A stretch of DNA of 64,000 nucleotides from Candidatus Omnitrophota bacterium (GTDB lineage Bacteria > Omnitrophota > Gorgyraeia > Ghiorseimicrobiales > Ghiorseimicrobiaceae). The position numbers and the translations under genes were made by a program. The stretch spans positions 23,942 to 87,941 of the forward strand of contig JAUXSB010000014.1 of NCBI GenBank assembly GCA_030681595.1, given 5' to 3'. The first letter of the stretch is position 1. Every line of letters begins with the position of its first letter. Shown here in pieces: positions 1 through 34,483 of the stretch. Below the pieces are notes generated by a model. That model was not told the origin of the DNA and did no database searches. It saw nothing but the letters and a program-made list of their open reading frames with translations.

Positions 1-1270
1 CATAATTCTGTGAAAAAGTAAGCAGCCCAAAAAATATTACTATTGCCGCAATGACAAGCGAAACAATACTTTTCTTTACTGCTGGGTTATTATACAGGCC
101 TTCAAATCCGCAACTGATAGCCAAAAATATGCCTATTGAAGGCAGGTACAGATAGTGCTCTGCCATGAGTGCCACAAAAACAAACGTTGACTGCGGGAAA
201 AGAAAGATTAAAAACCAGATAGCCCCGAATATAACAAACCGCTTTTTCTCCTGGCGCAATCTCCTGACGATAAATAAAAAAACAACGAATATTAACATAA
301 ATACTAAAACATCAATATCAAAAATCGCCTTTGCCGGGACTATAAACCGCTCCATATGCAGGTTAACCGGCATAACTGTCAACCCTAAATAAAGAGCCGC
401 GCCCTTTAAAAAACTGAAAAACCTGATAATATTATTCGGAGAATAAAGGCTTGCTTTTTTCCAGATAGGTATTGCGGCAAAGTTAAGGATAGTTAAGCGC
501 AAAAATATGTAGAAAATGACGATGATCAGAAACGGTAAAATTCTCTTGACCCTCGAAGACAGCTTTTCATTCTCTCTAAAAAAATACTCGTAGCAAATCA
601 AGGCAAGAGGAAAAATAATACTCATCTCTTTAGAAAATAAAGCCAGAATAAAACAGAAAATAGATAACAAATAAAAGACGCCGAATGTTTCCGTTTTCTG
701 GTTTCTGGCCTGTGCCCGAAAGGGTATTACTGGTTTCTGGTTGCTAAGATATAATATCATCGCTGATAACAAGAAAAATCCCGATAGCAAATCTGCCCTG
801 CCGGAAATATAGCTGACGCTTTCTGTATGCGCGGGATGGACAACCCAGAGAAGGGCGGTGAACAAAGGAATGATTGCGGATTGCGGATTGCGGATTGCGG
901 ATTGTTTGTCCACAAATGCTTTACTTGATACTTGATACATGATACTTGATACCAAAACATATATTAATATCGCATTTAGGATATGCAGAAGAAAATTATG
1001 TAAATGGTACCCGAAAGGGTTCAGTTTCCAGAAATGATAATCCAGCATAAAACTGAATACCTGTAGCGGGCGGTAATAATTAGTTGCGGTTTTATCCATC
1101 AGTTCCTGGGTAATAATCTTATTAAAATTACTGATGTTTTTGATTAAGCCATTACCCAGAATAAGGACTTCATCATCCCAGATAAAACCATTGCTAAAAG
1201 AATTAGCGTAGGCAAGGAGCCCCGATAAAATAATTACTGTTAACGAAATTATAAAAAATTTTCCCCGCAT
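1..1270 (-). CDS. TPR-repeat integral membrane protein, paralog of 2365..4311 (N-terminal part only; gene runs off window start)
   Basis: Minus-strand frame opens at ATG 1270..1268 (MRGKFFIISLTVIILSGLLAYANSFSNGFIWDD...YRPLQVFSFMLDYHFWKL...GYHL) and stays open to position 1 by hand translation; N-terminus parallels the 2365..4311 product. Not in ORF track because no stop within window. Contains heptamer arrays 872..953. Confidence 0.55.
   Translation of the reverse strand, partial: MRGKFFIISLTVIILSGLLAYANSFSNGFIWDDEVLILGNGLIKNISNFNKIITQELMDKTATNYYRPLQVFSFMLDYHFWKLNPFGYHLHNFLLHILNAILIYVLVSSIMYQVSSKAFVDKQSAIRNPQSAIIPLFTALLWVVHPAHTESVSYISGRADLLSGFFLLSAMILYLSNQKPVIPFRAQARNQKTETFGVFYLLSIFCFILALFSKEMSIIFPLALICYEYFFRENEKLSSRVKRILPFLIIVIFYIFLRLTILNFAAIPIWKKASLYSPNNIIRFFSFLKGAALYLGLTVMPVNLHMERFIVPAKAIFDIDVLVFMLIFVVFLFIVRRLRQEKKRFVIFGAIWFLIFLFPQSTFVFVALMAEHYLYLPSIGIFLAISCGFEGLYNNPAVKKSIVSLVIAAIVIFFGLLTFSQNY
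872..953. repeat. Two adjacent heptamer tandem arrays (GATTGCG x4 plus partial; ACTTGAT x4 with one variant) inside the coding frame
   Basis: Direct reading of sequence; absent from the aligned position of the paralog at about 3940; hand translation stays in frame across it. Confidence 0.8.
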
Positions 1271-1335
1271 AATAAAAAGTAATCCCGAGTTAACATTGCG
1301 TCAACTCGGGATTATGCATAGCTTGTTATATTTCC

Positions 1336-1794
1336 TTACTCTAATACTGAATCGCCCACAACAGGTATGGCAGCGCTTGTGTTTGTCCAGTGAATAACAC
1401 CACTTTCATCCACAAAGAAACCTCTTACACCTGTAACCCCGGCAACGATTGGCCTGGCGCTAGCAGTAAAGGAGTTTGCTGCACCTGCAACGGCAAAACT
1501 ATAACCTTGCTTTCCGCAAGCTACACCACTTAAGCCGGCAGCGCAACCTAAAACCGTATCAATATAAGGCGGCGTTGCATTTGGAGCAGCCATTGAAGAT
1601 AAGCCAGTAGGATAATTTGGATTCGCACCCCTATAACTCTGAGCAGCGCTGGAAATAGTATGCAGGGCGGCTACAGCGGCGGCTTCGTTGGCGTTTACTC
1701 TTGCGCGCAGCAAGTTCGGTATCGCAATAGCGGCCAATAAAACGATGATCGCTACTACAATCATGATTTCAACTAAAGTAAAACCTTTTCTCAT
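1336..1794 (-). CDS. Prepilin-type N-terminal cleavage/methylation domain protein (type IV pilin / pseudopilin-like)
   Basis: N-terminus MRKGFTLVEIMIVVAIIVLLAAIAIPNLLRAR: G-F-T-L-V-E processing motif followed by hydrophobic helix. Confidence 0.75.
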   Translation of the reverse strand: MRKGFTLVEIMIVVAIIVLLAAIAIPNLLRARVNANEAAAVAALHTISSAAQSYRGANPNYPTGLSSMAAPNATPPYIDTVLGCAAGLSGVACGKQGYSFAVAGAANSFTASARPIVAGVTGVRGFFVDESGVIHWTNTSAAIPVVGDSVLE

Positions 1795-1985
1795 TTTAAA
1801 ACCCCTCCTTTCTAAGGCAGAATTGACTTACACGTTTTTACCTCTTTATTATCCTATGATGATTCCTTCCGGCTTTTAAAAAAGAGGTTTTTATCTAACG
1901 CGTTGTCGCCTTATCAGTTACCTTTATTTTTACCACCTCCTTCCCCAAAAGTCAAGACTTTTTATTTTTTCCCGATACTATCGCA

Positions 1986-2016
1986 AAAACAAAAAAAGCC
2001 CATCTGAAAATGGGCT
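1986..2016 (-). terminator. Rho-independent terminator candidate
   Basis: Stem agcccat/atgggct (1997..2003 and 2010..2016), loop ctgaaa, followed on the minus strand by a T-run (plus-strand A-run 1986..1997). Confidence 0.5.
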
Positions 2017-2364
2017 CATGCTTTACGAATTCCTACTTTTTATACGGAATACGGCAACCCGACTACCATATCCCGACGCAACGTGGCTTTGGCTATTATC
2101 GAACGCCAAACCACTACCATCTGGCTTGTCGGAACTTAGGCTCGCGGCTTTACGCCCTATCTTTTCAGATAGTTTGCCTTTATCCCGTTAGAGGCCTTTC
2201 TAAAATATATTTATAATACCGTTTTTGGCAATACTCACCTCTAAAGGGCATATTTTCATTACATATTTCAAAGAGCTTCTGTGGCTTGGGCTATTCGGAG
2301 GCCCAACCACTGCCTTCTGGCTTGTCGATTTCTTAGCTTAAGTATACCACATAAATAAGATATT

Positions 2365-4311
2365 TCAAGGGCTATCGATAAGCTTATCCCGCCATACCTT
2401 AACTTCGCTAAAAGCAGGGTTAATTACGAGTGCTTTGTCAAATTCTTCTTTTGCGCGGGTATAATCCCCCCTTTGCCAGTAAAATGCGCCTAAATTATAG
2501 TGAGCTATCGCGGAACTGTTATCCAGCTTAAGCGAATTCAAAAAATAATACTCTGCCTGGTCAAATTTTTGTAAAAGCGCGTAAACTATGCCTAAATTAA
2601 GGCTTGCCTCCGCACTCCCGGGCTCAAGATTAAGTACACACAAGTATTCCTTAAAAGCCAACTCATATAAACCAACCTTCTTATAGGCTGCGGCTAATTC
2701 ACTATGATATGCAGGATTTTTATTATCCAAAGCGGCTGCCGCGCGCAATGTTTCTATTGCTAAGCTTAAATCACCTGCCTCCTCATAAATAAGCCCCAAG
2801 AAATAATGATGATTAGGAATGGCGGGATTTATCCTTAAAGATTCCTTGTACGCCGCAACTGCCTCAGAAAATTGGCCGTTATTTGCATACATGCTGCCTA
2901 AATTTGCCCAGCCCCAGAAAGAGCTTGGGTGAGCCTCAAGAAAACTTTTAAGCTGGCTGAACGCGGCATCTTTACGGCCGCTTAAATATATAACCCTAAT
3001 CAGATTCAATAAAGATGTATCAAAATCCGGCCTTATATCTATGGCCTTTAAATAATATTTTTCCGCCTCTTTATAATTGCCTTCCTTTTCTTTTATCGCC
3101 GCCAGATTATTGTAAACATTGTAACTACCTTTAGAAAATTTTAGTATATGTTTGTAGAAACGCTCCGGGTTATGCCAGACAAAGTTATACTGTACGCTAA
3201 GGTAGGCGTAAAAAATAATTAAGCCCGCGGGTAAGAGGATGAATATTTTTTTCTTTGCGATTAGCCATGCGGCTATAATTGCCAAAACGAGAAACACCCC
3301 GATGGATGCAACGTAGCAAAAATGCTCAGCAAAATAGGCGTTTATCTGGAATATTCCGGAATGGGGCAAAAGAAACAAACCAAACCAAGCAAGGCCAAAA
3401 GAAAACAATTTAAATTTCCGGTATGCCTTTAGCGCCAAGAAAACAAGGCAGATTACGCCGACAATAGAAGCCCAGACGCTGGCATCCCATATTGATGAGA
3501 CAAGCCTAACCGCGTAAGACATGTGAAGGCCAAAAGGTAAAAGCAGGGTTTTGAGGTATAAAAAAATAGCTTTTATAAAAAAGAGAGCATTAATATAGCT
3601 ATCGCCTAATGAAGAAAAAATTGTTTTATTGGGAAGAATCACAACACGCAGGGCAACATACACTACGCTCAGTAAAAAGAATGGCAGGTAAACTATTTTG
3701 CGAGGTAACTTAGCCTTAGCCAAAGGTAAATTAAAACCATAGGTATACAACAGTAATAAGAAAGGGAAAATAAGAGCCAATTCCTTAGAAAGCAGCGCTA
3801 AACCAAAAGAAAGCAAAGAAAATACATAAGAACATTCAATGAATAATATTAAAGATAACAGCAAAAACAATGCTACCAGCATATCCGCCCTGCCGGAAAT
3901 ATAAGTTACCGCCTCTACATGTATGGGATGGACAACGAATAACAAAGCTGTAATCAACGAAATAACTGTATTAGCAGAAATAATCAGGATAAATTTATAT
4001 AAAAAACATGCTGTCAGGATATGCAGGATTATATTCGTAAGATGGTAACCTATGGGGCGCAGCTTCCAGACCTGATAATCCAGCATGTAGGAAAAGGCCT
4101 GGAATGGGCGGTAGAAATTCCTCGCTTCGCTTTTAGCATCAAATAAATCAGTGGAAAATACCCGCCCAAGATGGCGGAAGTCTTTTATCAAATAATTATT
4201 GCTGACCAGGCCGGTATCATCCCAAATAAAGGGGACAGACAAAGAATTAAAGTAACAAATAAAACCCAAAGCCGTTATTAAAATAACTGCTGTTAACTTT
4301 CGCTTATCCAT
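2365..4311 (-). CDS. TPR-repeat integral membrane protein (multi-TM N-terminal domain plus C-terminal TPR repeats; glycosyltransferase-like architecture)
   Basis: 648 aa; hydrophobic N-terminal two thirds, C-terminal region with repeated A-x-x-Y/L-G TPR-like units (AYHSELAAAYKKVGLYELAFKEY, AHYNLGAFYWQRGDYTRA). Confidence 0.7.
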   Translation of the reverse strand: MDKRKLTAVILITALGFICYFNSLSVPFIWDDTGLVSNNYLIKDFRHLGRVFSTDLFDAKSEARNFYRPFQAFSYMLDYQVWKLRPIGYHLTNIILHILTACFLYKFILIISANTVISLITALLFVVHPIHVEAVTYISGRADMLVALFLLLSLILFIECSYVFSLLSFGLALLSKELALIFPFLLLLYTYGFNLPLAKAKLPRKIVYLPFFLLSVVYVALRVVILPNKTIFSSLGDSYINALFFIKAIFLYLKTLLLPFGLHMSYAVRLVSSIWDASVWASIVGVICLVFLALKAYRKFKLFSFGLAWFGLFLLPHSGIFQINAYFAEHFCYVASIGVFLVLAIIAAWLIAKKKIFILLPAGLIIFYAYLSVQYNFVWHNPERFYKHILKFSKGSYNVYNNLAAIKEKEGNYKEAEKYYLKAIDIRPDFDTSLLNLIRVIYLSGRKDAAFSQLKSFLEAHPSSFWGWANLGSMYANNGQFSEAVAAYKESLRINPAIPNHHYFLGLIYEEAGDLSLAIETLRAAAALDNKNPAYHSELAAAYKKVGLYELAFKEYLCVLNLEPGSAEASLNLGIVYALLQKFDQAEYYFLNSLKLDNSSAIAHYNLGAFYWQRGDYTRAKEEFDKALVINPAFSEVKVWRDKLIDSP

Positions 4312-4357
4312 ATCGCAAATTTAACCAAACCCGGTATTTTCTTAACAATCTCAAAAC

Positions 4358-4398
4358 TTAACTTTACATTTTATGCAATGCTCAAAATGTAAAGTTAA
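4358..4398. promoter_or_regulatory. Perfect 15-bp inverted repeat (ttaactttacatttt / aaaatgtaaagttaa) with 11-nt spacer; terminator or operator
   Basis: Seen directly; overlaps stop codon of 4395..5306 and lies upstream of 2365..4311. Confidence 0.4.
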
Positions 4399-5306
4399 CT
4401 TGCGCTATCCAGAACCTGCTGCATATCTATAGGCAATACGTGCTCAAATTCCACGAACTCTTCTGTACGGGGATGAATAAAACCTATGTATTTAGCATAA
4501 AGGGCGAGTTTAATGCGTTTATCTTTCCTACCATATACTTCATCGCCTAATATCGGATGGCCTAATGCCGCCATATGCACTCTCAGCTGATGAGTACGCC
4601 CTGTCTGCGGGGTTAATTCTATAAAGGTAAAATTTTGATAGCGCTTTATTGTCTTATATCGCGTGTAAGCCGGCCGGGCGTCTTCCTTAAAATCTACCGC
4701 CATCTTCACTCTGTTTAAAGCATGCCTGCCAATGGGCAAATCCACTATTCCTTCATCAAATTGAACATTGCCTAAAACTATTGCCATGTAAATACGCTTT
4801 ATGGAATGTTCGGCGAATTGCTTTATTAAAGAAAGGTGTGCCTTATTATTTTTTGCCGCAACCAATAAACCTGCGGTGTCCTTGTCTAAACGGTGCACGA
4901 TACCAGGCCTATCCGGATTTATGGCAGATAATTCTTTACAATGAAATAATAACGCGTTCACCAGCGTTTTATCGGGATTGCCTGCCGCGGGATGCACCAC
5001 TAAACCGCGCGGCTTGTTGATTACTATTAAATCCTCGTCTTCATAAATAACTTCTAAAGGGATATCCTCCGGTTTAGGCCTGGCATCGGATGGGGGCGGG
5101 ATAATTATTTTTACCTCCTCTTTCGCTTTTATCTTATGGTGCGGCTTGGCAATTTTACCATCAAGCAGAATATTTCCTTCGCGCATAAGCTTCTGGATAG
5201 AAGCCCGGGAAAAACTAACGCCGGAGGATGAAAGCTGCCCTATTATGTACATGTCCAGCCTCAGGACGGAATCGGCATCTGAAACAGTAAAATTATATTC
5301 TTGCAT
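4395..5306 (-). CDS. rluD: RluA-family 23S rRNA pseudouridine synthase (RluD-like, with N-terminal S4 domain)
   Basis: HRLDKDTAGLLV catalytic motif region and S4-like N-terminus. Confidence 0.8.
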   Translation of the reverse strand: MQEYNFTVSDADSVLRLDMYIIGQLSSSGVSFSRASIQKLMREGNILLDGKIAKPHHKIKAKEEVKIIIPPPSDARPKPEDIPLEVIYEDEDLIVINKPRGLVVHPAAGNPDKTLVNALLFHCKELSAINPDRPGIVHRLDKDTAGLLVAAKNNKAHLSLIKQFAEHSIKRIYMAIVLGNVQFDEGIVDLPIGRHALNRVKMAVDFKEDARPAYTRYKTIKRYQNFTFIELTPQTGRTHQLRVHMAALGHPILGDEVYGRKDKRIKLALYAKYIGFIHPRTEEFVEFEHVLPIDMQQVLDSAS

Positions 5307-5446
5307 ATTTAATAGAAACCCGAAATCCTAATGTCTAAAACTAAAAAACATAGTTGTATGTTTTGAGCATTTTTGATTTCAAAGACTTAGGTATTGTTTC
5401 GCCTGCACTGCCGGCAGGAAGGGATTTCGAATTTTGTGCTTAGAAT

Positions 5447-6175
5447 TTATAACTTTCTTCTGTTTAAATCGGCTTGACAAAACAAAAGAAATATTAACGC
5501 TATCATAAATATACCTGCGCTGATAAGTTGAAATATGGTGAAGCCTAGAAAAATTGAAGGACTGTCTCCACGCAAGAATTCTATAAAAAATCTTTTGCCG
5601 GAATAGAAGATTAGATATAAGAAAAATATGTTGCCTGTTTTGAGATTGCGTTTTTGCAATATCCTTAAAACTAAAAAAACAAAAAGCATGATCAGCGAAG
5701 AAAAAACCTGCGTAGGATAAAAAATATTTACTCCCGGCCAGATTTTTCCGTAACAACAGCCGTTCAAAAAACAACCGATCCTGCCGATGGCTTGGCCCAA
5801 TGCTAGATACGGAGCCATTAAATCCAAAACGGGTAAAACCGCCTGTTTCTTTATCCGTACATATATTAGCCCTGCGGCTACGCCTGAGATTAATCCGCCG
5901 TACCAAACTAAACCGCCATGCCAAAGCTTGATTATTTCGTAAGGATCTTGCTTAAAAAAATCAAAATTAAGGATAATAAAGAATATTCTTGCTCCGATAA
6001 CTCCTGAAACCAGGCACAATAAACAAAGATTAGAAATAAAATACGGCGGGAAATTCCTTATTTGTGACTCCCTCTCGGCCAACATGCTGGCCGCCAAAAA
6101 AGCCAAAGCAAGGAAAAACCCGTAAGAGTAAATCGTTATCGGGCCGAATTGTAAAAGGATTGGATACATAGTCAA
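5447..6175 (-). CDS. lgt: Prolipoprotein diacylglyceryl transferase
   Basis: Multi-TM protein with the Lgt signature region GGLISGVAAG...YPTQ; conserved position next to lspA. Confidence 0.8.
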   Translation of the reverse strand: MTMYPILLQFGPITIYSYGFFLALAFLAASMLAERESQIRNFPPYFISNLCLLCLVSGVIGARIFFIILNFDFFKQDPYEIIKLWHGGLVWYGGLISGVAAGLIYVRIKKQAVLPVLDLMAPYLALGQAIGRIGCFLNGCCYGKIWPGVNIFYPTQVFSSLIMLFVFLVLRILQKRNLKTGNIFFLYLIFYSGKRFFIEFLRGDSPSIFLGFTIFQLISAGIFMIALIFLLFCQADLNRRKL

Positions 6176-6209
6176 ACAGAATTAAGCACTAAAGATTAAA
6201 CCTTAGTGC

Positions 6210-6665
6210 TTATTGCTTACCGCTTAGTCCTTGTTTTTGGTTTATTAGAATTCTTAAACCAATTAATACTGCCCCTATGGTAATACAAGAATCGGCGACA
6301 TTAAATACCGGCCAGACCCTAAAATCCAAAAAATCAACAACATAGCCAAAACGAAACCGGTCTATCAAATTGCCTATTGCCCCGCCTAAAATCAAAAATA
6401 AGGAAAATTTTACCAACCTGTCCAATTTTTCTTTTCTTAAAAACCAATAGCGCAATATAAACATAACGGCGATAAGGCTTATAAAGATAAGGATTATCGT
6501 TGAGTCTTTAAACAATCCGAAGGCGATACCGGTATTTCTTACTAAGGTCAGATGGAAAATATTTTTGAAGACGGGAACGGATATTCCGTAGTTTAATTTA
6601 TCTAAGGCGAGAAATTTAGTCAGCTGGTCAAAAAATACTACGCTAGCACTGACAATAAAACCCAT
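6210..6665 (-). CDS. lspA: Lipoprotein signal peptidase II
   Basis: 151-aa 4-TM protein with FNVADS motif; ileS-lspA linkage. Confidence 0.85.
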   Translation of the reverse strand: MGFIVSASVVFFDQLTKFLALDKLNYGISVPVFKNIFHLTLVRNTGIAFGLFKDSTIILIFISLIAVMFILRYWFLRKEKLDRLVKFSLFLILGGAIGNLIDRFRFGYVVDFLDFRVWPVFNVADSCITIGAVLIGLRILINQKQGLSGKQ

Positions 6666-6675
6666 TAAAATAGGA

Positions 6676-7113
6676 TTATTTTTCTCTTTTTTGCTGGCAC
6701 TTAAGGCAAAGCTTTGTATGCGGCACGGCCTTTAAGCGTATCTTAGTAATCAGGTTACGGCAGTCTTCACAGACACCATAGGAAGCATCTTCGATTCTCT
6801 TTAAGGCCTCATTAACTTCATAAAGCATCTCACGTTCGAAGCTGCCCAACCCCAGAGAAAATTCGCGGTCATACGTGTCGGTAGCCACATCCGCCATATG
6901 CAAGGTATAGGCCGAAATGTCGCCAGCTGCATCCTTCTGCGATTTTTTCATAGTGTCTTCTGAAACATGATTTATGCCTTCCAGAACTTCTTCTTTTCTT
7001 TTTAATAATAAATCTTTGAAAAGTTTTAGTTCTTTTTTATTCATTTTTTTTGCCGCTTTAGCTTTAACAACCTTAATGGTTCTGATAATTTTACTTTTTT
7101 TATTCTTTTTCAT
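6676..7113 (-). CDS. DksA/TraR-family C4 zinc-finger protein
   Basis: C-terminal CEDC...CLKC four-cysteine finger after a coiled-coil region; likely start MKKNKK at 7113, overlapping the ileS stop. Confidence 0.65.
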   Translation of the reverse strand: MKKNKKSKIIRTIKVVKAKAAKKMNKKELKLFKDLLLKRKEEVLEGINHVSEDTMKKSQKDAAGDISAYTLHMADVATDTYDREFSLGLGSFEREMLYEVNEALKRIEDASYGVCEDCRNLITKIRLKAVPHTKLCLKCQQKREK

Positions 7114-9851
7114 CAAATCGCCTCCAAGCATCTTTTACAAATTAAGCTATGCATATTATCTTCTCCAACGCTCAAACTGTAGTTCCAGCAACGCATACAT
7201 TTTTTTCCGTCGGCTTTTTCTACCACAATACCAAACTTATCGGCTTTCTCAATATTAACCGCTGAAACAATAAATATGGCCGCCAAATCGGGCAGGTAAG
7301 CCTTAAAAAAATTACAGTCCTCTTCTTTTATAAAAAAGAGGCTTACCTTTGCCTCCAAAGAACTTCCTATTTTACCACTATTTCTGTTTTCTTCAAGTAT
7401 TTTTAAAACAGAATTACGTAATTCTATAAGCCGGGCAAAATCGCTCTCCAAGCCGGAATTTATATATCCTTCCTTAACTTCGGGCCAATTACTTAAATGG
7501 ACGGAATCGGCAGAATCACAAACCTTCTCTTTAATAAGCTGCCAGATTTCTTCCGAACTAAAAGAGAATATCGGCGCAAGAGCCTTGGTAAGAAGGATTA
7601 ATATTTCAAATAAAACCGTCTGGGCGCTCCTGCGCGCAAGAGAATTTTTCCTGAAAGTGTAAAGCCGGTCCTTAAGGATATCCAGATAAAACGCGCTTAA
7701 ATCCACAATGCAAAAACTGTAAACTGAATGATAGACAGAATAAAAATTAAAGTTTTCGTAACTCGCATTTACTTCCTTTAAAATGTTTTGCAGCCGCGAA
7801 AGCGCCCACTTATCCAAAAAGAGAAGCTGTTCATATTTTACCGCATCTGCCTGCGGGTTAAAATCGTACAAGTTCCCCAGTATAAACCTCAAGGTATTCC
7901 TAATTTTACGGTAGCTTTCAGAAAGGCGGGTGATTATTTCATCGGAAATACGCACATCTTCGCGGTAATCACAGGATACAACCCATAGCCGCAGGATATC
8001 CGCGCCGTATTTCTGGATTATTTCTTGCGGCGAAATAACATTGCCTTCAGATTTAGACATCTTCCTGCCTTCGCCGTCAACGACAAAACCATGCGTAAGC
8101 ACGGATTTAAAAGCGCTTTTTTCATCAAGCGCAATAGATGGAATTAACGAAGACTGAAACCAGCCCCTATGCTGGTCAGAGCCCTCTAGATATAAATCCG
8201 CCGGGAATGCCAGGCCCAAACGCTCCTTTAAAACCGCCTGATTACTCACCCCTGAATCAAACCAGACATCAATAATGTCATTGCCTTTATCAAAATCGCT
8301 TTTTTTACACTCCGAGCAGATAAAACCGTCAGGCAATAAATCCTTAACGCAGCGGATAAACCATGCGTCAGAACCTTCTTTTGAAACAATTTCGGCAAAG
8401 TGCATAATTACAGTTTTATCTAACAGCTCTTTAGAGCAATGTTTACAATAAACCGAAGGAATAGGCACGCCCCATAGCCTTTGACGGGAAAGGCACCAAT
8501 CGGGCCTGGTTTCTAACATCGCATAAAACCTGTTTTCGCCAGCCCGAGGGAACCACTTTACATTTCTTACCGCGGATAACGCCCTTTTTCTTAAACCTTC
8601 GTGGTCAACATTTAAAAAATACTGCTCTGTGGCACGGAAAATTACTGGTTTTTTACAGCGCCAGCAATGCGGATAAGAATGCGTTACGTCTGCTTGAGCA
8701 ACAAGCGCTCCCGTCTCTTTTAGTTTTTCTACAATTGCTTTATCCGCTGCATGCACATTCATGCCGCGGATAAAATCCGGCGCCGATTCATTAAAAGCAC
8801 CCTTGTTATTTACCGGCATAAATACCGGCAGGCTATATTTTATGCCGGTTAAATAATCTTCCTGCCCGTGCCCGGGCGCGGTATGCACACATCCGGTGCC
8901 TTCATCAGCCAAAACATAATCCGCTAAAACTACAACGCCTTCCCGCCCGATGAAGGGATGTTCATACTTCAATCCGTCTAAATCCTTACCCTTTAAAGTT
9001 CCTTTTATTGTAAAATCTTTCAAAATTCCCGCTTCGCTTAATTGATCGATCCGGCTTTTAGCAAGAAAGAGAGTTTCACCGCCGATTTTCATAGATACAT
9101 ATAATAATTCCGGATTTACAGCTATGGCTACATTTGCCGGTAGGGTCCACGGCGTAGTAGTCCAAGCCAACAGATAATGTTTGCCGTCAGCGAATTGCGG
9201 GCCTTTAATTTTAAATTTAACGTATACCGAATGCGAAGTACGGTTGTCATACTCTACTTCTGCTTCAGCCAAGGCAGTCTCGCACTGGTAGCACCAGTTT
9301 ACCGGCTTAAAGCCGCGATAAATGTAACCCTTATCCGCTAACTCAGCCAAAGACTTTAATATGCTCACCTCATAATCTTTGGCTAAAGTAAGATATGGAT
9401 TAGACCAATCGCCTAAAACCCCAAGCCTGATGAATTGCTTTCTCTGAATATCAACGAATTTAAGCGCATATTTTTGCGCTTTTTTTCTAAAATCCGCCTG
9501 ATTGACTTCGTGTTTAGAAAGGTTCAAGTCCTTTAAGAGATTATATTCTATGGGCAAGCCATGGCAGTCCCAGCCGGGAACATACGGCGCGTCAAACCCC
9601 TGCATAGTCTTAAATTTTACCACCACATCTTTTAAGGTTTTGTTTAAGGCATGGCCGATATGGATTTCTCCGTTGGCATAAGGCGGGCCGTCATGCAAAA
9701 TATACTTAAGCTTACCATGATATTTTTTGCGGATTAAACTGTATAAACCTATCCTTTCCCAAAAAGCCAATATATCCGGCTCCCTTTTGGCGAGGTCGGC
9801 TTTCATTGGAAAACTGGTCTGGGGTAAATTAAGGGTAGATTTATAGTCCAT
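7113..9851 (-). CDS. ileS: Isoleucine--tRNA ligase
   Basis: 912 aa; HIGH motif ([14 protein letters not shown]), KMSKS motif, zinc-binding cysteines near C-terminus. Confidence 0.95.
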
Positions 9852-9886
9852 ATTTTTAGCGTTTAGTTTTAACTATACGCTATACG

Positions 9887-10747
9887 CTATTTGAGGTATT
9901 TTCCGATAATAATCTTTAAATCTTTTTTAATCTTTCGCGGTATAATTTTTTTATCTGTTACAATCGCGTGTTTTAGCGTATCCTTGCATCTGCAATCTTC
10001 TCTCTCAGGCAAGCTCAATATCACTTCGCGAATTATTTTCTTTGCATTGGCAACATTCTGGACGAGGTTTGCGATTACCATTTCAACGGTCACGCTGTCG
10101 TGCCCGGGATACCAGCAGTCATAATCGGTTACTGCCGCCAGTGTCGCATAGCAAATTTCCGCCTCGCGCGCTAACTTTGCCTCTGACATATTAGTCATGC
10201 CGATTATAGACATTCCCCAAGCGCGATATAGATTTGACTCAGCCCTTGTAGAAAATGCCGGCCCTTCCATATTTAGATATGCCCCGCCTGAATGCATTTT
10301 TAAATTAAGTTTTTTTCCAGAATCATAAAGAACTTTGGAGATTTGCGGGCAAACCGGATCCGCAAACCCGATATGGGCAACAATCCCTTTTTCAAAAAAA
10401 GTCATGGCGCGCGCCTGGTTTGTACGGTCAACAAATTGATCGGGAACTACAAAATCTAAAGGCGCAATTTCTTCTTTTAGGCTTCCGCAAGCAGAAACTG
10501 AAATAATACGCTGGACGCCTAATTTTTTCATCCCAAAGATGTTAGCGCGATAATTTATATGGCTTGGTGAAATTTTATGGCCTCTGCCATGACGAGGCAG
10601 AAAAACTACTTCTTTGCCTTCTAATTCACCGGTGACATATTTATCGGAAGGGCTGCCAAAAGGTGTAGTGACGCTCACTGATTTTACTTTTTTAATTCCC
10701 TCAATATTGTATAACCCGCTTCCGCCGATAATGCCGATTTTATCCAT
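9887..10747 (-). CDS. mtnP: S-methyl-5'-thioadenosine phosphorylase (PNP family)
   Basis: MDKIGIIGGSG start, HGRGH and typical MTAP segments; the ORF-track start at 10804 is probably an upstream extension. Confidence 0.8.
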   Translation of the reverse strand: MDKIGIIGGSGLYNIEGIKKVKSVSVTTPFGSPSDKYVTGELEGKEVVFLPRHGRGHKISPSHINYRANIFGMKKLGVQRIISVSACGSLKEEIAPLDFVVPDQFVDRTNQARAMTFFEKGIVAHIGFADPVCPQISKVLYDSGKKLNLKMHSGGAYLNMEGPAFSTRAESNLYRAWGMSIIGMTNMSEAKLAREAEICYATLAAVTDYDCWYPGHDSVTVEMVIANLVQNVANAKKIIREVILSLPEREDCRCKDTLKHAIVTDKKIIPRKIKKDLKIIIGKYLK

Positions 10748-10751
10748 AAAA

Positions 10752-11588
10752 TTATTCCTTTCGTGATAATTCTTTCGCACGCTTAACTGCTGCCTTAACC
10801 GCATCGGTTAAAGTACCGCCTTTATGCAATGCTTCTAAGCCTGCTTCGGTTGTGCCGCCCTTAGAAACAATGCTCCATTTAAATTTCGAAGGCTCTTCAC
10901 CCAAAAATTGCACCGTAACCAAAGTACCAATAGCTGTTGAACGAGCTAATAGCTTAGCATCTTTCCTGTTAAAACCTATTCCTTCGGCTGCAACAGTAAA
11001 CTCTGGAATAAATACTTCTTGGCTATATTTTTCCCACTGATCTTTAGGCTTATCCTCTAGACGTTCGCACCAAAATCCCGGCCCGCTTCCGGATACCGCG
11101 GTCGCCGCATCCATCATGTCCTCGTTTAAAATTAATGTCTTTCCTAAATTATCAAATAATTTTTTAGCAAATATAACGTCTCCTTTGCTTGCGAATTTCC
11201 CCTTGCACAGACAACTCATGCCTCTACCAATTCTTGCCGGCATATTCGGCATCACCCTCACCACCCGCACGTTACCCAACTGCTTCTCAATATAATTTGT
11301 AGTTATGCCGGCGGCGATAGAAACAAATAATTTGTTTTTCCAACAATCTTTGACCTCGCCTAAAACAAAGTCAAAATCTTGAGGTTTAACAGCCAATATA
11401 ATAACATCAGCATTTTTTGCCAATTCAGAACTATTTTCTGATAACTTTACGCCTTTAAACCTATTTACCTTCTCTTTATCCTTATCAAAAACAAAAAGAT
11501 GATACTTACGCTTAATGCGTTCTGCAATCGCCGAACCCATATTTCCGGCGCCGATTATTCCAATCTTTTTCCGAAAATTTTTAAACAT
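10752..11588 (-). CDS. proC: Pyrroline-5-carboxylate reductase
   Basis: N-terminal Rossmann motif IGIIGAGNMGSA; conserved yggS-proC linkage. Confidence 0.85.
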   Translation of the reverse strand: MFKNFRKKIGIIGAGNMGSAIAERIKRKYHLFVFDKDKEKVNRFKGVKLSENSSELAKNADVIILAVKPQDFDFVLGEVKDCWKNKLFVSIAAGITTNYIEKQLGNVRVVRVMPNMPARIGRGMSCLCKGKFASKGDVIFAKKLFDNLGKTLILNEDMMDAATAVSGSGPGFWCERLEDKPKDQWEKYSQEVFIPEFTVAAEGIGFNRKDAKLLARSTAIGTLVTVQFLGEEPSKFKWSIVSKGGTTEAGLEALHKGGTLTDAVKAAVKRAKELSRKE

Positions 11589-12343
11589 CAGCTGCCAAAT
11601 ATAGCCCTTCCGATTCTAACTATTGTAGCTCCCTCTTCTATCGCCACCTTGTAATCCTGGCTCATACCCATGGACAAAATTCCCAATTCCCAATTCCCAA
11701 TTCCCAATTTAACAACAATCTTTTCCTTGAGCTCTCGTAACATCTTAAAATATGGACGGGCTTCTTCTGGATTGTTTGATAGGGGCGCTATCGTCATCAG
11801 GCCATTTATGCGGATATTTTTAAACTCGGATGCCTTTTTTATAACCTCAATCGTTTCATCGGGTTTTAACCCGAATTTTGTTTTTTCACCCGAGGTATTT
11901 ACTTCTATTAAAATATCCTGAATTTTATTTATTTTTTTAGCCTGCTTATTTATTTCCTCCGCCAAATGCTGGCTGTCCACCGAATGAATCAAATCAAAGA
12001 TCCGCACAGCCTCTTTTACCTTATTGGTCTGCAAATGGCCGATCATGTGCCATTTTAGAGTATTGCGTATTGCCTGCCCGAATGACCGCGCCCGACTGAA
12101 CGTCGTTCGGGCGGGAGTCAGGCGGGGGTGTTGGGTATTGAGTTGATTATACTTGATCAGCGCTTCCCGGACTTTATTTTCGCCGAGGTCAAATATTCCC
12201 GCGTTTATCGCTTCTTTAATCTGCGCTAAATTTGCTTCTTTGACTACCGCAATCAAGGTAATCTCGCCCGGGCTTCTTTTTACTTTCCGGCAAACAAACT
12301 CTATTTCCTCGCGTACGCGCAGGACATTCTCTTTTGGGACCAT
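11588..12343 (-). CDS. yggS: YggS/YlmE-family PLP homeostasis protein carrying two in-frame repeat insertions
   Basis: Conserved LSMGMS and HxIGHLQTNK motifs; extra segments NQLNTQHPRLTPARTTFSRARSFGQAIRNT and LGIGNWELGIL are encoded by repeat DNA. Confidence 0.8.
   Translation of the reverse strand: MVPKENVLRVREEIEFVCRKVKRSPGEITLIAVVKEANLAQIKEAINAGIFDLGENKVREALIKYNQLNTQHPRLTPARTTFSRARSFGQAIRNTLKWHMIGHLQTNKVKEAVRIFDLIHSVDSQHLAEEINKQAKKINKIQDILIEVNTSGEKTKFGLKPDETIEVIKKASEFKNIRINGLMTIAPLSNNPEEARPYFKMLRELKEKIVVKLGIGNWELGILSMGMSQDYKVAIEEGATIVRIGRAIFGS
11678..11710. repeat. Heptamer tandem array (AATTCCC x4 plus partial) inside yggS
   Basis: Direct reading; encodes LGIGNWELGIL immediately before the conserved SMGMS motif. 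Confidence 0.8.
12073..12128. repeat. GC-rich palindromic element (family shared with 30921..31050 and 62960..63120) inserted in frame in yggS
   Basis: cctgcccgaatgaccgcgcccgactgaacgtcgttcgggcgggagtcaggcggg with self-complementary arms; near-identical copies in two intergenic regions. Confidence 0.75.
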
Positions 12344-14899: not shown

Positions 14900-15882
14900 C
14901 AGCGCATTTTTCTATCCTGCTTGCGCGGCGTCAACGCTAAAGACAATAACTTCATGCAAAGCTGGATAAAATTTACCCCTACAGCCTGTGCTGCCTTAGG
15001 AAGAAGGCTGGTTTGCGTCATGCCGGGAATAGTATTAAGTTCTAACACAAAAAGACGGTTGGTATTATCTATTATCATATCTACGCGCGAAAATCCGTAA
15101 CAGCCCAACGCCTTATGCGCAGCCAAAGCTGTTTCTTGTACCTTGCTATAAATATCCTGCGTAAACGCTGCCGGTACTATATATTCGGTTAACCCTTTGG
15201 TGTATTTTGCCTGATAATCAAAGAATTTCCTCTTAGGGATTACCTCTACCACAGCTAGCGGTTTATCTTCCAAAATACCAACGGTGCATTCACGCCCCTG
15301 TATATATTCTTCTATTAAAACGTTCTCATCATGGACAAACGCTTCCCTCAAGGCCGGCCATAGATCCTTCTCCTCTTCGACAATACTTAAACCTATACTT
15401 GAACCGGAAGTTGCCGGCTTGACTACTACGGGGAATTTTCCAAGTTTTTTCTTAAAAGGAATATTTTTGTTTACTATTTCTGCCTCCGGTACAGAAAGCC
15501 CGGCCTCCTTAAACCTTTTCCGCGCAGCTATCTTGTCTAAGGCTAACCTGCTGGCTTCTATTCCGGATCCGGTATACGGAACCCGCATTTCCTGGAGTAG
15601 TTTTTGTACTGTCCCGTCTTCGCCGAACTTTCCATGCAAAGCGATAAAAGCTATTTTAATCCGCGCTTTTTCGATCTGCGTACGCGCCTTTCCTGAATCG
15701 CTTTCGGTGATATCTAAAACTACCACGTCTAAATTTGAAGACTTAAACGCTTCAAATACAGCCGAGCCTGATTTCAGGGAAATCTCCCTCTCCGAGGAAG
15801 GCCCGCCCATTAATACGCCAATCCTTCCAAACTGATTCTTAGTTCTTGGTTCTTGTTTCTTAATCCTGCCTGCTACGGCCAT
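14899..15882 (-). CDS. ddl: D-alanine--D-alanine ligase
   Basis: ATP-grasp motifs; GVLMGGPSSEREISLKSG N-terminus typical of Ddl. Confidence 0.9.
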   Translation of the reverse strand: MAVAGRIKKQEPRTKNQFGRIGVLMGGPSSEREISLKSGSAVFEAFKSSNLDVVVLDITESDSGKARTQIEKARIKIAFIALHGKFGEDGTVQKLLQEMRVPYTGSGIEASRLALDKIAARKRFKEAGLSVPEAEIVNKNIPFKKKLGKFPVVVKPATSGSSIGLSIVEEEKDLWPALREAFVHDENVLIEEYIQGRECTVGILEDKPLAVVEVIPKRKFFDYQAKYTKGLTEYIVPAAFTQDIYSKVQETALAAHKALGCYGFSRVDMIIDNTNRLFVLELNTIPGMTQTSLLPKAAQAVGVNFIQLCMKLLSLALTPRKQDRKMR

Positions 15883-16832
15883 ATCTTTATCTCCGGCTCA
15901 AGCTCGACATTAAACTTATTCTTAACTTTTCTTCTTATTAAAGACATAAGGCGCAGTACGTCGCCTGCCTTGGCGTTACCGTTATTAAAAATAAAATTAG
16001 CATGTTTTAACGAAACAAACGCCCCACCGATAGACTTACCTTTTAGCCCGCATAAATCAATCAGGCGGCCTGCGCTTTCGTTTAAAGAAGGATTCTTAAA
16101 AATACACCCTGCTGAAGAGCATGATAGATCTTGCGTCATCCTGCGCCTGCTTAAATATTTATCAATATCCTCTTTTATCTTTTCCCTGTTTCTTTTCTTC
16201 AGCTTTAACGTCGCGTTTAAAATTACATACCCGGAAAGATTCGATGTGCGATAGCCGAAATCTAAATTTTTTTTATTTATCAGTTTAATATTGCCGTTGT
16301 AATCCATAACTGTTATATCCTCAACCAAATCTCCGATGCTCTTAGTCTTTGTCTTACCGTTTTTAATTTTTAATTTTTCATTTTTAATTACGGTTGCTAT
16401 GCCCGCATTCATCGCTAACGCGCCGCCGAATGTCCCCGGGATACCGCTTAGGAATTCTAAGCCGCCCAAATTGAAACTACGCGCTCTCCCCAATAAAAAA
16501 GTAAGCCTGGCGCCGGCACCGCATAAAATTTTGTTTTTCTTTGCTTCTATCTTTTTAAAATATCCCCTGTTCAAACTTATTACTATGCCCTTTATGCCCG
16601 CATCTAAGCCAAGAATATTACTCCCTGCGCCTATGATAAATAGCGGGATATTTTTTTTCTTGGCAACTCTTATTACAGAGGCCAGCTCCTTAAGGTTCCC
16701 CGGCTCAACCCAGAACTCTGCCGGCCCGCCGATTCTAAAAGTGGTATGCTCAGCAAGCGGTTCATTAAATTTTACCCCGTTAGGGATAAATTCCCCAATA
16801 CTATAAATTAAATCCTTGCGTTTTTCATTCAT
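15873..16832 (-). CDS. murB: UDP-N-acetylenolpyruvoylglucosamine reductase
   Basis: FAD-binding N-terminus (TTFRIGGPAEFW), C-terminal GGAFVS...HANFIFN region. Confidence 0.9.
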   Translation of the reverse strand: MNEKRKDLIYSIGEFIPNGVKFNEPLAEHTTFRIGGPAEFWVEPGNLKELASVIRVAKKKNIPLFIIGAGSNILGLDAGIKGIVISLNRGYFKKIEAKKNKILCGAGARLTFLLGRARSFNLGGLEFLSGIPGTFGGALAMNAGIATVIKNEKLKIKNGKTKTKSIGDLVEDITVMDYNGNIKLINKKNLDFGYRTSNLSGYVILNATLKLKKRNREKIKEDIDKYLSRRRMTQDLSCSSAGCIFKNPSLNESAGRLIDLCGLKGKSIGGAFVSLKHANFIFNNGNAKAGDVLRLMSLIRRKVKNKFNVELEPEIKIWP

Positions 16833-16849: not shown

Positions 16850-16979
16850 CGCCGCAAAAGTCTTTGCGGCATCAAACAAAATTCTTCCCGCAACAGCGGG
16901 ATCCCGTTAGCGGGAAAACGCCAGCCACCGCCTAATGGCGGGGTGCCGCCAACGGCGGCATCGGCAGATTTTGTTTGAT
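16850..16979. repeat. Palindromic GC-rich element flanked by 12-bp inverted repeat atcaaacaaaat / attttgtttgat; overlaps murC 3' end
   Basis: Several internal hairpins (gccgcaaa..tttgcggc, cccgcaacagcggg, gccgccaacggcggc); perfect 12-bp terminal inverted repeat at 16871..16882 and 16968..16979. Confidence 0.6.
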
Positions 16980-18344
16980 AAGCTTAAAAGATAACTCATC
17001 AGCCAGCTTTCCTACATCCCCTGCGCCCAGGGTAATAATTAAATCGCCGGAATTAACGATAACCAAAATCCTGTTTACAATTTTTTCTTTTTGAATAAAC
17101 TCTACGTTTTTCCTTCCCTTTTTTCTTATTTTCTCGCAAATAGTTTCTGCGTTTATCCCGGCTATAGGCAACTCGCTGGCGGCATAAATATCCGTTATGA
17201 TTAAGTAATCCGCCTGATCAAAACTATCTGAAAATTCATCCATAAGAAACTTGGTGCGGCTGAAACGGTGCGGCTGAAACACGACGATAAGCCTCTTGTA
17301 GCATTTATGTTCTGCGATGCTGCGCGCCGCGGATAACGTTGCCTTTATCTCGGTAGGATGATGCGCGTAATCGTCTATAATCAGATACTCGGGCGACTCT
17401 CCTTTTATTTCCAGCCTTCTTTCTGCGCCTTTGTAGGTTGAAAGGCTCTCACGGATAACATCCTTGGCTACGCCTAATTCCTGCCCCAGGGCAATTACTG
17501 CCAACGAATTTGAAACATTATGCAAGCCTGGAATAGATAACTTAAACCTCCCTAGCGGCTCATTGTGCCAAAAACAATCAAATCCGCAAGTAAAGCCTTC
17601 TTGGCTGACGCTGTCCGCCCGCACATCGCATCCCTGGCTTAACCCGAACGTAATGAAGCGTTTTTTAATACCGGATAATATTTTTCTGATATTTAAATCA
17701 TCGTAACAGGCAATAAGACAGCCTTCATCTTTAGTTTTTTCCATAAACTCAGCGAATGCCTTAACGATACTGGCATAATCTTTATAATAGTCCAGATGCT
17801 CATAATCAATATTGGTAACGATAGAATAGACGGGTTCGTATTTTAAAAATGTTCCGTCGCTTTCATCTGCCTCGGCGACAAAGTACCTGCTTTCGCCTAT
17901 AAAGATGTTATCATCCCAATTTCTCACTATGCCGCCGATTACGGCTGTGGGATTAAAACCTGCCTGAATCAGCATATGCGCAACCAGAGAAGTAGTGGTG
18001 GTTTTCCCGTGCGCGCCGCTTATCGTAATCGCTACTTTATCTTTCATGAGCGCTGCTAAACATTCCGCCCTGCGCATAAGCGGAATATTATGTTTTTCTG
18101 CCGCAATAAATTCTACATTATCCGGCTTAATCGCGGAAGAATAAACCGCTAAATCCGCGCCAGAAATATTTTCCGCCTGGTGCCCTAAATATACTTTAAT
18201 ACCCTCCCGTCTCAGCGATTCCAAAAGGCGGGAATCTTTAACATCCGAGCCGGAAACAAATACCCCCTTAGTGCGCAGTATAGAAGCAATCCCGCTCATT
18301 CCTATTCCACCGATACCGATAAAATGTACGTGTTTATAACGCAT
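16932..18344 (-). CDS. murC: UDP-N-acetylmuramate--L-alanine ligase
   Basis: GIGGIGMSG N-terminal motif, QPHRFSRT motif; C-terminal tail of the ORF is encoded by the palindromic element. Confidence 0.9.
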   Translation of the reverse strand: MRYKHVHFIGIGGIGMSGIASILRTKGVFVSGSDVKDSRLLESLRREGIKVYLGHQAENISGADLAVYSSAIKPDNVEFIAAEKHNIPLMRRAECLAALMKDKVAITISGAHGKTTTTSLVAHMLIQAGFNPTAVIGGIVRNWDDNIFIGESRYFVAEADESDGTFLKYEPVYSIVTNIDYEHLDYYKDYASIVKAFAEFMEKTKDEGCLIACYDDLNIRKILSGIKKRFITFGLSQGCDVRADSVSQEGFTCGFDCFWHNEPLGRFKLSIPGLHNVSNSLAVIALGQELGVAKDVIRESLSTYKGAERRLEIKGESPEYLIIDDYAHHPTEIKATLSAARSIAEHKCYKRLIVVFQPHRFSRTKFLMDEFSDSFDQADYLIITDIYAASELPIAGINAETICEKIRKKGRKNVEFIQKEKIVNRILVIVNSGDLIITLGAGDVGKLADELSFKLIKQNLPMPPLAAPRH

Positions 18345-21571: not shown

Positions 21572-21598
21572 GAAGCTTGTAGCCTGCGGCTAAATATT
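21511..21598. repeat. Imperfect long hairpin between murD and ftsW
   Basis: gcttcaagctgcaggcttcaggctccaggct ... agcttggagtttgcagcatgaagcttgtagcctgc are approximate reverse complements. Confidence 0.45.
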
Positions 21599-30889: not shown

Positions 30890-31250
30890 TCCTATTGCTT
30901 CAAGCGAAAAATGCAAACTTGCCGCGCCCGACCTGCCCGAATGACCGCGCCCGACTAGATGTCGTTCGGGCGAGAGTCAGGCGGGCTGAATGTCGTTCGG
31001 GCGGGCGCTTATTTTTCGCGCGATGCCCCGCCACAAAGCGTTGGCGGGCAGGCCGCGAATCCTTTAAATGAAACCATAAGTTATGGAAGCCTAAAGGCGA
31101 CATAACTTATTTGGTTGAATTTATCCCGATACTTGCAAGAAAATTTAGAATAAATTTTTGCAGTGTTTTAGTATCGGGGGCGGCACAATGGAAAAATTAA
31201 ACCTAACTTTATGTATTACAATGGATAGAATATGGCTGAGATTGTACGTT
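30890..31250. repeat. Composite intergenic repeat: GC-rich palindromic units (30921..31050) plus two-hairpin module (31076..31178)
   Basis: Near-identical to 62940..63250; module related to the leaders at 52686..52934, 54032..54268 and 62214..62370. Confidence 0.7.
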
Positions 31251-34202: not shown

Positions 34203-34483
34203 TAAATCATCTCCATTTCATAATCAAGCAACACAGCACCATTAACATCGGAAGTAAAATCCACTATTTTAGACAGAGTGCTGTTTACTAAACCAGAATA
34301 AGGCCCGATACAGGCAAAAGCCAAAAGTGTTACCTGCCATTTATCCTGATGGTCTGCTTCCATAACCGAAACGTTAAAATTATTACGCACCCTGTCTTTT
34401 ATGCTTTTTAGCACCATTCTCTTTCTCTTTAGAGAATTACTCTTTGGAATCTGCAGCTTAAGTTTTAATATGCCGACTACCAT
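34202..34483 (-). CDS. DUF503-family (YlxP-like) protein
   Basis: 93-aa protein at the position YlxP-like proteins occupy next to rbfA. Confidence 0.55.
   Translation of the reverse strand: MVVGILKLKLQIPKSNSLKRKRMVLKSIKDRVRNNFNVSVMEADHQDKWQVTLLAFACIGPYSGLVNSTLSKIVDFTSDVNGAVLLDYEMEMI

Follow-up and report, generated by a model that had tools for sequence, protein, structure and literature searches.

Heptanucleotide tandem arrays within reading frames of a Candidatus Omnitrophota bacterium and at the same sites in its relatives

The DNA considered here, hereafter the window, comprises 64,000 nucleotides (nt) of contig JAUXSB010000014.1 (positions 23,942 to 87,941 of the forward strand; assembly GCA_030681595.1) from a Candidatus Omnitrophota bacterium, and this account concerns the short head-to-tail arrays of 7-nt units that lie in it, mostly inside genes. 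An earlier note on this DNA had flagged five such arrays: two in a paralog of a tetratricopeptide repeat (TPR) protein and one each in yggS, murE and the signal region of a lipoprotein gene. All five were found where that note had placed them, both in the sequence itself and with the repeat finder TRF, and each is in frame within an open reading frame of the minus strand. TRF also reported weaker period-7 arrays starting at 687, 6202, 15836, 16360 and 21511. The arrays are listed below in window coordinates; each has its own distinct unit.

687-708, minus strand: GTTTCTG (plus-strand unit), 3.1 copies, weak and decayed; within a 21-residue insertion, relative to the paralog, of the membrane protein that also carries the next two arrays.
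872-904, minus strand: GATTGCG (plus-strand unit), 4.7 copies, perfect; sense CAATC(CGCAATC)4, 33 nt; encodes QSAIRNPQSAI in a loop of a multipass membrane protein.
922-952, minus strand: TACTTGA (plus-strand unit), 4.4 copies, 1 mismatch; sense GTATCAA with one variant unit, GTATCAT; encodes SSIMYQVSS in the same loop, 17 nt upstream of the 872-904 array in the sense direction.
6202-6232, minus strand: CTTAGTG (plus-strand unit), 4.4 copies, degenerate; 3' end of lspA and the lspA-lgt spacer.
11678-11709, minus strand: AATTCCC (plus-strand unit), 4.6 copies, perfect; sense AATT(GGGAATT)4, 32 nt; in yggS, encoding LGIGNWELGI immediately ahead of the conserved LSMGMS strand.
12059-12072, minus strand: CAATACG CAATACT, the two leftover units of a second YggS array broken by a dispersed element at 12073-12130.
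15836-15861, minus strand: CYAAGAA, 3.7 copies; N-terminus of Ddl, ahead of the conserved RIGVLMGG.
16360-16389, minus strand: AATTAAA (sense), 4.3 copies; MurB loop directly following the MNAG motif.
21511-21589, minus strand: inverted pair of about 5 copies of CTNCANG and 4.4 of CYTGNAG, between murD and ftsW, with the true ftsW start downstream of the array; folds into a long hairpin (dG -36.3 kcal/mol, z -3.5).
26900-26929, minus strand: ACCGGTG (plus-strand unit), 4.3 copies, 1 mismatch; sense TCACCGG; in murE, encoding SSVTGHRSPV.
37904-37937, minus strand: ACAGAAG (plus-strand unit), 4.9 copies, 88% matches; sense TTCTGTC, about 5 copies; lipoprotein signal peptide, with the CGC of the lipobox next.

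The arrays are far more frequent than chance allows. Under a third-order Markov model of the 64-kb window, 0.005 perfect period-7 arrays of at least 3 copies are expected and 3 are observed, while no perfect array of at least 3 copies occurs in the window at period 5, 6 or 8-15. The same holds for related Omnitrophota DNA (876 kb), which contains 23 period-7 arrays of 3.5-5 copies against 0 expected. Throughout the data scanned, period 7 stands far above periods 5, 6 and 8-11, with period 8 as a minor second class. The arrays are thus head-to-tail 7-nt units beyond compositional expectation, as in long simple sequence repeats (SSRs), at a density of only about 1 per 8 kb in a genome that is about 90% coding. 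An assembly artefact was considered and rejected, since independent assemblies are identical (Logan contigs of sample SRR13727519 match the window sequence with 0 mismatches) and arrays occupy the same sites in relatives from other samples and projects. The closest relatives of the MurE, RluD and LigA of the window all come from Candidatus Omnitrophota metagenome-assembled genomes (MAGs).

The host genes named by the earlier note were borne out, YggS and MurE by matches to solved structures and the TPR-paralog and lipoprotein hosts by further support; MurB and Ddl are additional hosts, and FtsW is encoded beside the array of the intergenic spacer. The host of the arrays at 872-953, whose gene runs from 1270 past the start of the window, is a multipass membrane protein corresponding to the N-terminal part of a TPR-protein paralog. 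The adjacent paralog bears C-terminal TPRs, and both the 872-904 and the 922-952 arrays fall inside an 18-residue insertion relative to the paralog. At 2050-2188, the minus strand carries a c-di-GMP-I riboswitch (Rfam RF01051, 67 bits); because it is upstream of a prepilin-like gene (1336-1794) and of the array-bearing TPR membrane protein gene, the latter may be part of a c-di-GMP-controlled envelope operon.

Placement within the other proteins follows a similar pattern. The MurE array occupies the most variable loop of the N-terminal domain, with a column entropy of 3.4-4.0 bits versus less than 1.5 in the flanking strands, and the length of this loop differs among solved homologs. The MurB array is part of a 16-residue insertion after the MNAG motif relative to 3tx1. 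At 37904-37937, the array constitutes the hydrophobic core of a lipoprotein signal peptide, in a host with a conserved n-region, core and LCGC lipobox. The lipobox is conserved in all four genomes compared (the window and three relatives, L087, L088 and L089; related sequences are designated by L numbers), and the GTG start codon overlaps the ligA stop codon in three of the four (window, L088 and L089), lying 4 nt past it in L087. The NCBI annotation of this gene (37465-37977, minus strand) is a 139-residue hypothetical protein with a Met start after the array. Judging from the signal peptide, the lipobox and the start at the ligA stop in four genomes, the 170-residue lipoprotein version is probably the real product, and the heptamer array seems to have misled the calling of the start codon.

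Syntenic DNA was compared from one genome of about 84-90% protein identity (L082 and L087), from another of about 70-76% (L002 and L085), and also from L084, L086, L088, L089 and L211. At every comparable site (9/9), at least one relative carries an array in the same place. The shared sites include two intergenic spacers, where the arrays of related genomes again have about 4.4 units. The sites compare as follows.

YggS: window, TTGGGAA, 4.4 copies; L085, TTCGGAW, 4.4 copies, with register and length unchanged.
Second YggS array: window, broken by the dispersed element; L085, intact CAATACG, 3.4 copies, with the element absent.
Ddl N-terminus: window, CYAAGAA, 3.7 copies; L002, CYAAGAA, 4.6 copies; L082, decayed.
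MurB loop: window, AATTAAA; L082, GGGTTAA/GGGTATC, about 4 copies; L002, the 8-mer AGAGTGTC, 4.5 copies.
MurE loop: window, TCACCGG; L002, CAATTAC; L211, CAGGGGT; L003 and L004, CACAGCT; L006, CAGTCCA; L010 and L023, the 8-mer AGACACCA; at 84-90% identity, the orthologs have the unrelated units TCACCGG, CAATTAC and CAGGGGT, and AAGTAYC in traces.
Signal peptide: window, TTCTGTC; L088 and L089, TACTCTC; L087, TTTTAAT.
Membrane-protein loop: two neighbouring arrays in the window gene and likewise in all orthologs and paralogs except the window gene at 2365-4311; L086 (ortholog of the other paralog) has a 29-nt array identical to 922-952, variant unit included; L085 has CTGCAGG-type arrays where the window has the 922-952 array.
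lspA-lgt spacer: window, 6202-6232; L086, TCTTAGY, 4.4 copies, in the same spacer.
murD-ftsW spacer: window, 21511-21589; L084, array present.

Identity between units is mostly 0.83-1.0 inside an array, compared with 0.2-0.8 across species at one site. With units alike within arrays but divergent between species, the arrays bear the signature of long-lived loci whose units evolve in concert or get replaced. The idea that these are tolerated repeats in unrelated and even essential genes was retained; that they are recent insertions was not, as relatives mostly carry arrays at the same sites already.

Two of these host genes also contain repeats of other kinds. The element that interrupts the second YggS array (12073-12130, minus strand) is a dispersed, GC-rich, hairpin-forming sequence of 54-58 nt, resembling repetitive extragenic palindromes or miniature inverted-repeat transposable elements, and it is translated in frame as 18 residues. 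Further copies, one 93% identical and the others partial, are intergenic at 30932-30985, 30986-31005 and 62992-63024 (between mraZ and ribF, and near 63000), and one Logan contig of sample SRR13727519 apparently stops at the 30932 copy. In the MurE loop of L023, the octamer array is broken by a 21-nt palindrome, CCTGCCTGTCTGGCAGGCAGG (L023:10139-10159). P0369, a 92%-identical variant of the MurE of the L002 species, has a 7-residue insertion, LPVRQAG, which on comparison by back-translation equals the palindrome read in another frame (LPVWQAG). Diverged copies of the palindrome are intergenic at L014:9955-9975 and L084:4359-4379 (0.3 expected by chance), and the L082 MurE loop has another small hairpin (TCCCG...CGGGA) at the same position. 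In size and dispersal the palindrome recalls a class of Nostoc sequences, the small dispersed repeats of 21-27 nt.

The reading frame leaves a clear mark on the arrays. None of the five flagged units contains a stop codon in the sense strand; since translation passes through a 7-nt unit in each of the three phases, only units free of sense-strand stops can persist. In the TTTTAAT array of L087, variant units occur exactly where the perfect unit would give an in-frame TAA, and the frame is intact in every orthologous array examined in the relatives. The earlier note had attributed the intact frame to partial units that restore it; what is found instead is a net length that differs from orthologs by 0 or by multiples of 3 nt. 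The difference is 0 nt for the YggS array, and the MurB loop of the window is exactly 21 nt (3 units) longer than that of L082. Alignment of the window with L082 shows few internal indels, about 5 in 21 kb, and that 21-nt step at the MurB array is one of them. Furthermore, the MurE loops of 121 homologs have length modes of 15-16 and 22-23 residues, that is, a step of 7 residues (21 nt), and a 7-residue periodic signature is present in 20 of the 121, versus 4-6 for other periods.

It had also been proposed that gain or loss of one unit makes the arrays potential slipped-strand switches. The comparison does not support this proposal, as the hosts include the essential single-copy genes murE, murB and ddl, frames are intact, and the arrays have 4-5 units in stable number, which is few for a switch to work efficiently. 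Copy number remains unchanged across species at about 4.4-5, and no difference in unit number was seen between L088 and L089 or between the window and orthologs. Between L088 and L089, which share about 94% nucleotide identity, the array has no indel and 4 differences in 35 nt, against a background of 6.6%, so elevated divergence inside the arrays was likewise discarded. In the JGI metagenomes, a gapped exact pattern set about the yggS array matched no strain with a different unit number, and the clusters of window proteins at 90% identity or more contain just 1-2 members. The Logan contig L090, from a k=31 assembly of the same sample, covers 877-11707 without mismatch and has both ends inside perfect arrays, whereas imperfect arrays broke no contigs. 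Such breaks were not accepted as proof of heterogeneity in unit number, since identical array-only 31-mers are common in other organisms. Another Logan contig, containing L001, has inferred ends at about 16932, in a GC-rich hairpin (16909-16969) at the murB-murC junction, and at 30929, at the dispersed element.

The explanation favoured here, with a confidence somewhat better than even, is that heptanucleotide SSRs are tolerated at permissive sites of long standing, where slippage or template switching keeps the units alike while selection preserves the frame, and that the arrays do not act as switches. They would belong to an SSR class of about 4.3-4.9 units (30-34 nt), a type over-represented across many prokaryotes, and would be intragenic in most cases owing to the high coding density. 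Survival inside a gene would need a unit free of stops in three phases, a net change of 0 or 21 nt, and a permissive segment able to take 10-11 residues; the segments of this kind seen here are the surface loops of MurE, MurB and YggS, the inter-helix loop of the membrane protein, the signal-peptide core and the N-terminus of Ddl. Likeness within arrays combined with change between lineages would most simply result when replication slips or switches template within the array and selection for the frame sorts the outcomes. The arrays would then be mutational by-products that make segments of their host proteins hypervariable. That slippage both generates and homogenises them, and that they are neutral, we infer from these patterns.

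Several observations weigh against this explanation. Across the 876 kb of Omnitrophota DNA, the excess of period-7 arrays stays level between 2.5 and 5.0 copies; the range from 5.0 to 7.5 is empty, and one array lies near 8. Because simple stepwise slippage predicts a roughly geometric distribution, this plateau argues against it. Intergenic arrays too have mostly about 4.4 units, so frame selection alone is insufficient to account for "4.x" units, and growth unit by unit is impossible in essential genes, the intermediates being frameshifted. Another difficulty is that the 872-904 array exactly reproduces an archetype of 32-33 nt, (C)AATC(CGCAATC)4, which has fixed boundaries in unrelated genes. 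At least 120 JGI metagenome contigs, with GC contents of 40-70%, contain the exact 28-mer (GATTGCG)4. Among the matches listed, these arrays fall into 64 homology clusters from 67 frames, and the array is in frame with Pfam domains on both sides in ArgS, IspDF, HrpB, an Eco57I-type methylase, a TMEM260-like mannosyltransferase and planctomycete PSCyt/PSD1 proteins. Array lengths in this set peak at 32-33 nt, with boundaries that are non-random after allowing for the search register: 19 of 20 arrays of 32 nt start with AATC (P~1e-12) and 17 of 24 arrays of 33 nt with CAATC (P~6e-9). The flanks of 118 of these listed arrays show neither a consensus nor a target-site duplication.

The preference for certain units points in the same direction. 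In viral contigs, four copies of GATTGCG occur at 21 loci, whereas three stop-free control heptamers of matched composition gave 2-3 each, which makes the unit about 8 times as common. The viral contigs bearing this unit hold 77 more period-7 and 25 period-8 arrays in 447 kb, most often of 4.4-4.6 copies but reaching 14 at the upper end, and contigs with one GATTGCG array bear additional arrays of that unit. The CTNCANG/CYTGNAG family is present at four unrelated loci in three Omnitrophota genomes, against 0 expected, twice as an inverted hairpin-forming pair, and the module of the murD-ftsW spacer lies inside both TPR-protein loops of L085. Lastly, MurE-loop orthologs at 84-92% identity differ abruptly, by unrelated units or by a 21-nt insertion. 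Outside the Omnitrophota, the unit AACCGTG occurs at three loci in 20 kb of L046, a Kiritimatiellia MAG contig that has six period-7/8 arrays between 1225 and 18231 and near-identical flanks at the AACCGTG loci 15356 and 18202. This pattern points either to duplication of a segment or to a unit favoured in that one genome, here in another lineage of the Planctomycetes-Verrucomicrobia-Chlamydiae (PVC) superphylum. Of the hallmarks of a miniature mobile element, the same ends at unrelated loci were seen for the CGCAATC archetype and the CTNCANG/CYTGNAG module, the other window units being single occurrences; terminal inverted repeats, target-site duplications and an associated transposase were not seen, and no transposase lies beside the arrays in the window. 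In L085 only, a Y1 transposase gene (PF01797; IS200/IS605 or RAYT-like; L085:15973-16641) directly follows the array-bearing TPR paralog; the corresponding region on the Omnitrophota contig is situated past the left end of the window.

Besides tolerated SSRs, other explanations have to be weighed. Phase-variable contingency loci, in which gain or loss of a single unit toggles the host gene, would account for repeats in reading frames with a unit that is not a multiple of 3 and for the two envelope-protein hosts (the TPR membrane protein and the lipoprotein, the only ones of that kind), and the breaks of the k=31 assembly exactly in both perfect arrays could reflect unit-number variants. This explanation is nevertheless very improbable: rather than dispensable surface, lipopolysaccharide (LPS) or restriction-modification genes, the hosts include MurE, MurB, Ddl and YggS, all ortholog frames are intact, relatives have identical copy numbers of only 4-5 units, no variant was found in the searches above, and the breaks are equally explained by array-only 31-mers shared with other organisms. 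Selection at the DNA or RNA level for functional elements such as G-quadruplexes (G4), regulatory hairpins or protein-binding sites is held to be just as remote. The yggS array is a canonical sense-strand G4 motif, the sole one in the 64-kb window, like the G4-forming GGGAATC repeats of Xanthomonas, and the inverted murD-ftsW arrays form a stable predicted hairpin; yet only one array is G4-capable, the units are not conserved at each site, and most arrays have no predicted structure or partner. The G-quadruplex was accordingly rejected as a general cause of the four-unit mode, because G tracts are found in the yggS array alone. Recurrent independent births, in which arrays would arise de novo anywhere and be purged except in a few tolerant loops, without common descent, are also rather improbable. 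This scenario would explain why MurE and MurB loop units are unrelated between species and why a clean array is lacking in L082 MurE, in L082 Ddl and in the window paralog at 2365-4311, but it sits poorly with nine of nine comparable sites being shared despite about 1 array per 8 kb. Moreover, the units of YggS, Ddl, array A of the TPR-protein loop and the signal peptide are identical or similar among relatives and stay in register, and the intergenic spacers are shared as well, where no protein-structure filter applies.

The remaining explanation, which we regard as unlikely though less so than those just discussed, is an active cassette or copy-paste process that produces a whole array of about 4.4 units in a single event, by insertion of a pre-formed 30-33-nt cassette or by template switching to another array locus during repair of a break or stalled fork at a slippage-prone site. 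Units would then hop between loci, some of them (CGCAATC, AGCYTGN) would become widespread inside a genome and from one genome to the next, and the tract length of the process, not selection, would determine copy number. The non-geometric copy numbers with their ceiling at 5, found in intergenic arrays too, fit this prediction, as do the common boundaries of the CGCAATC arrays in unrelated genes, their excess over control heptamers, the extra arrays of the same unit per contig, the recurrence of AACCGTG and CTNCANG/CYTGNAG, and the abrupt replacement of MurE-loop units among close relatives. On the other side, no enzyme or mobile element is associated with the arrays, the CGCAATC flanks listed lack a consensus or target-site duplication, and all window arrays differ in unit. 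In addition, the first unit in the MurE loop usually takes in the conserved flanking Gln codon (CAR), as local duplication predicts; the YggS, Ddl and signal-peptide units change at 1-2 positions between species, as in gradual concerted evolution; and favoured units could reflect tolerance or slippage-proneness instead. In its widest form, the proposal is that a heptamer-specific process, possibly spread through the PVC lineages and perhaps further, creates or replaces tracts of about 4.4 units (30-33 nt) at recurrent hot spots, each in a single event, and draws on a few favoured units such as the (C)AATC(CGCAATC)4 cassette. This too is a doubtful proposition; if true, a one-step process would continually recode loops, linkers and signal peptides of proteins that are otherwise conserved, and it would be a mutational or mobile mechanism not described before, distinct from the usual slippage of polymerases.

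If the arrays are ordinary tolerated SSRs, the implication is that heptanucleotide repeats, usually deemed intergenic, can persist for a long time in frame in essential enzymes of a compact genome, where they create hypervariable loops and signal-peptide cores. There are practical consequences as well. Gene callers may set start codons wrongly, as with the NCBI start of the lipoprotein gene; perfect arrays break contigs in k-mer or unitig-style assemblies; and aligned residues in array loops are not homologous one-to-one.

The window contains a few other repeats. A 24-nt tandem repeat at 35588-35653 (minus strand) lies in the gene for a CCA-adding/poly(A) polymerase (34458-35819), with 2.8 copies versus 1.8 in L082, that is, 8 additional residues; its unit and the GC-rich dispersed element of yggS have TCGGGCAGGC in common. 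At 52706-52915 (plus strand), between the open reading frames 51539-52342 and 52935-53750, there is a 108-nt tandem duplication of 1.9 copies at 94% identity, for whose unit no Rfam family match was found. Inside murC, a perfect 14-nt direct repeat, GGTGCGGCTGAAAC, is present twice at 17253-17280.

Several systems of heptamer repeats provide a background for these arrays. The short tandemly repeated repetitive (STRR) families of heterocystous cyanobacteria, reportedly described by Mazel et al. in 1990, are said to be dispersed heptamer tandems with the units CCCCAGT, TTGGTCA and CAACAGT. The likeness to STRR repeats that the earlier note had drawn stands as far as the dispersed heptamer tandem form goes, which is shared with cyanobacterial and other bacterial repeats, but the arrays are not members of the STRR family: the window units match none of these consensus units, and the host belongs to the Omnitrophota and not to the cyanobacteria. 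The contingency loci of Haemophilus and Neisseria have many units, documented copy-number polymorphism, and hosts for surface, LPS or restriction-modification functions. Shared with them is a non-triplet SSR in reading frames, whereas the present arrays have 4-5 units, showed no polymorphism in the comparisons made, and sit in housekeeping genes.

Heptanucleotides are reported as the most abundant class of long SSRs in most prokaryotic genomes, and a 7-nt footprint of polymerase slippage has been proposed as the reason (Mrazek 2007, as presented in PMC4679880). The long SSRs of Mrazek, Guo and Shah (2007, PNAS) resemble the present arrays in having 7-nt tandems beyond chance, genome-wide dispersal and a proposed origin by slippage; that survey is reported to have stressed that units that are not a multiple of three lie mostly outside genes, and Omnitrophota were not among the organisms sampled, whereas the arrays described here are mostly in frame and intragenic. 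The heptamers of Xanthomonas prefer four units and occupy the same intergenic positions in related species while varying in length and sequence (Rehm 2015, PMC4692102). About four units, a conserved position and a variable sequence are found in the window and its relatives as well, and at least 4 tracts of three G with short loops are found only in the yggS array (GGGAATT, 4.6 copies). The GGGAATC/GGGGAYT repeats of Xanthomonas and Nostoc are 89-93% intergenic, with one favoured G-rich unit per genome and a four-unit bias ascribed to G4 (PMC4692102); the present units are diverse, mostly not G-rich and mostly intragenic, yet equal in number. The TAACTGA repeats of marine Beggiatoaceae, cyanobacteria and Bacteroidetes (MacGregor 2015, PMC4679880) are alike in having 2-6 copies, in a unit shared by distant phyla and in some 7-residue repeats internal to reading frames, but they differ in being a single unit, mostly intergenic upstream of start codons, with stops in the sense orientation. 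Heptamer-derived families also appear in a survey of prokaryotic satellites, in which Rhodopirellula is among the richer genomes (PMC6749651), while Lin and Kussell (2012) dealt with SSRs of 1-3 nt only.

A literature search for the GATTGCG unit, its dimer or its peptide, or for heptamer repeats in Omnitrophota or Planctomycetes, returned nothing relevant. As far as searched, the heptamer SSR is thus a known kind of repeat, and what is new is the phylum, the mainly intragenic location and the conserved array sites in essential enzymes; a cosmopolitan CGCAATC cassette with fixed boundaries is, within the same search, unreported. Four regularities call for explanation: the ceiling at 5 units, a four-unit mode without G4 potential, the fixed CGCAATC boundaries and the recurring unit families. 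Should a dedicated mechanism lie behind them, it would bear on a question posed in 2007, namely why prokaryotes favour a period of 7 nt in their long SSRs. The conserved in-frame sites and the CGCAATC cassette make the question "why seven?" a testable one.

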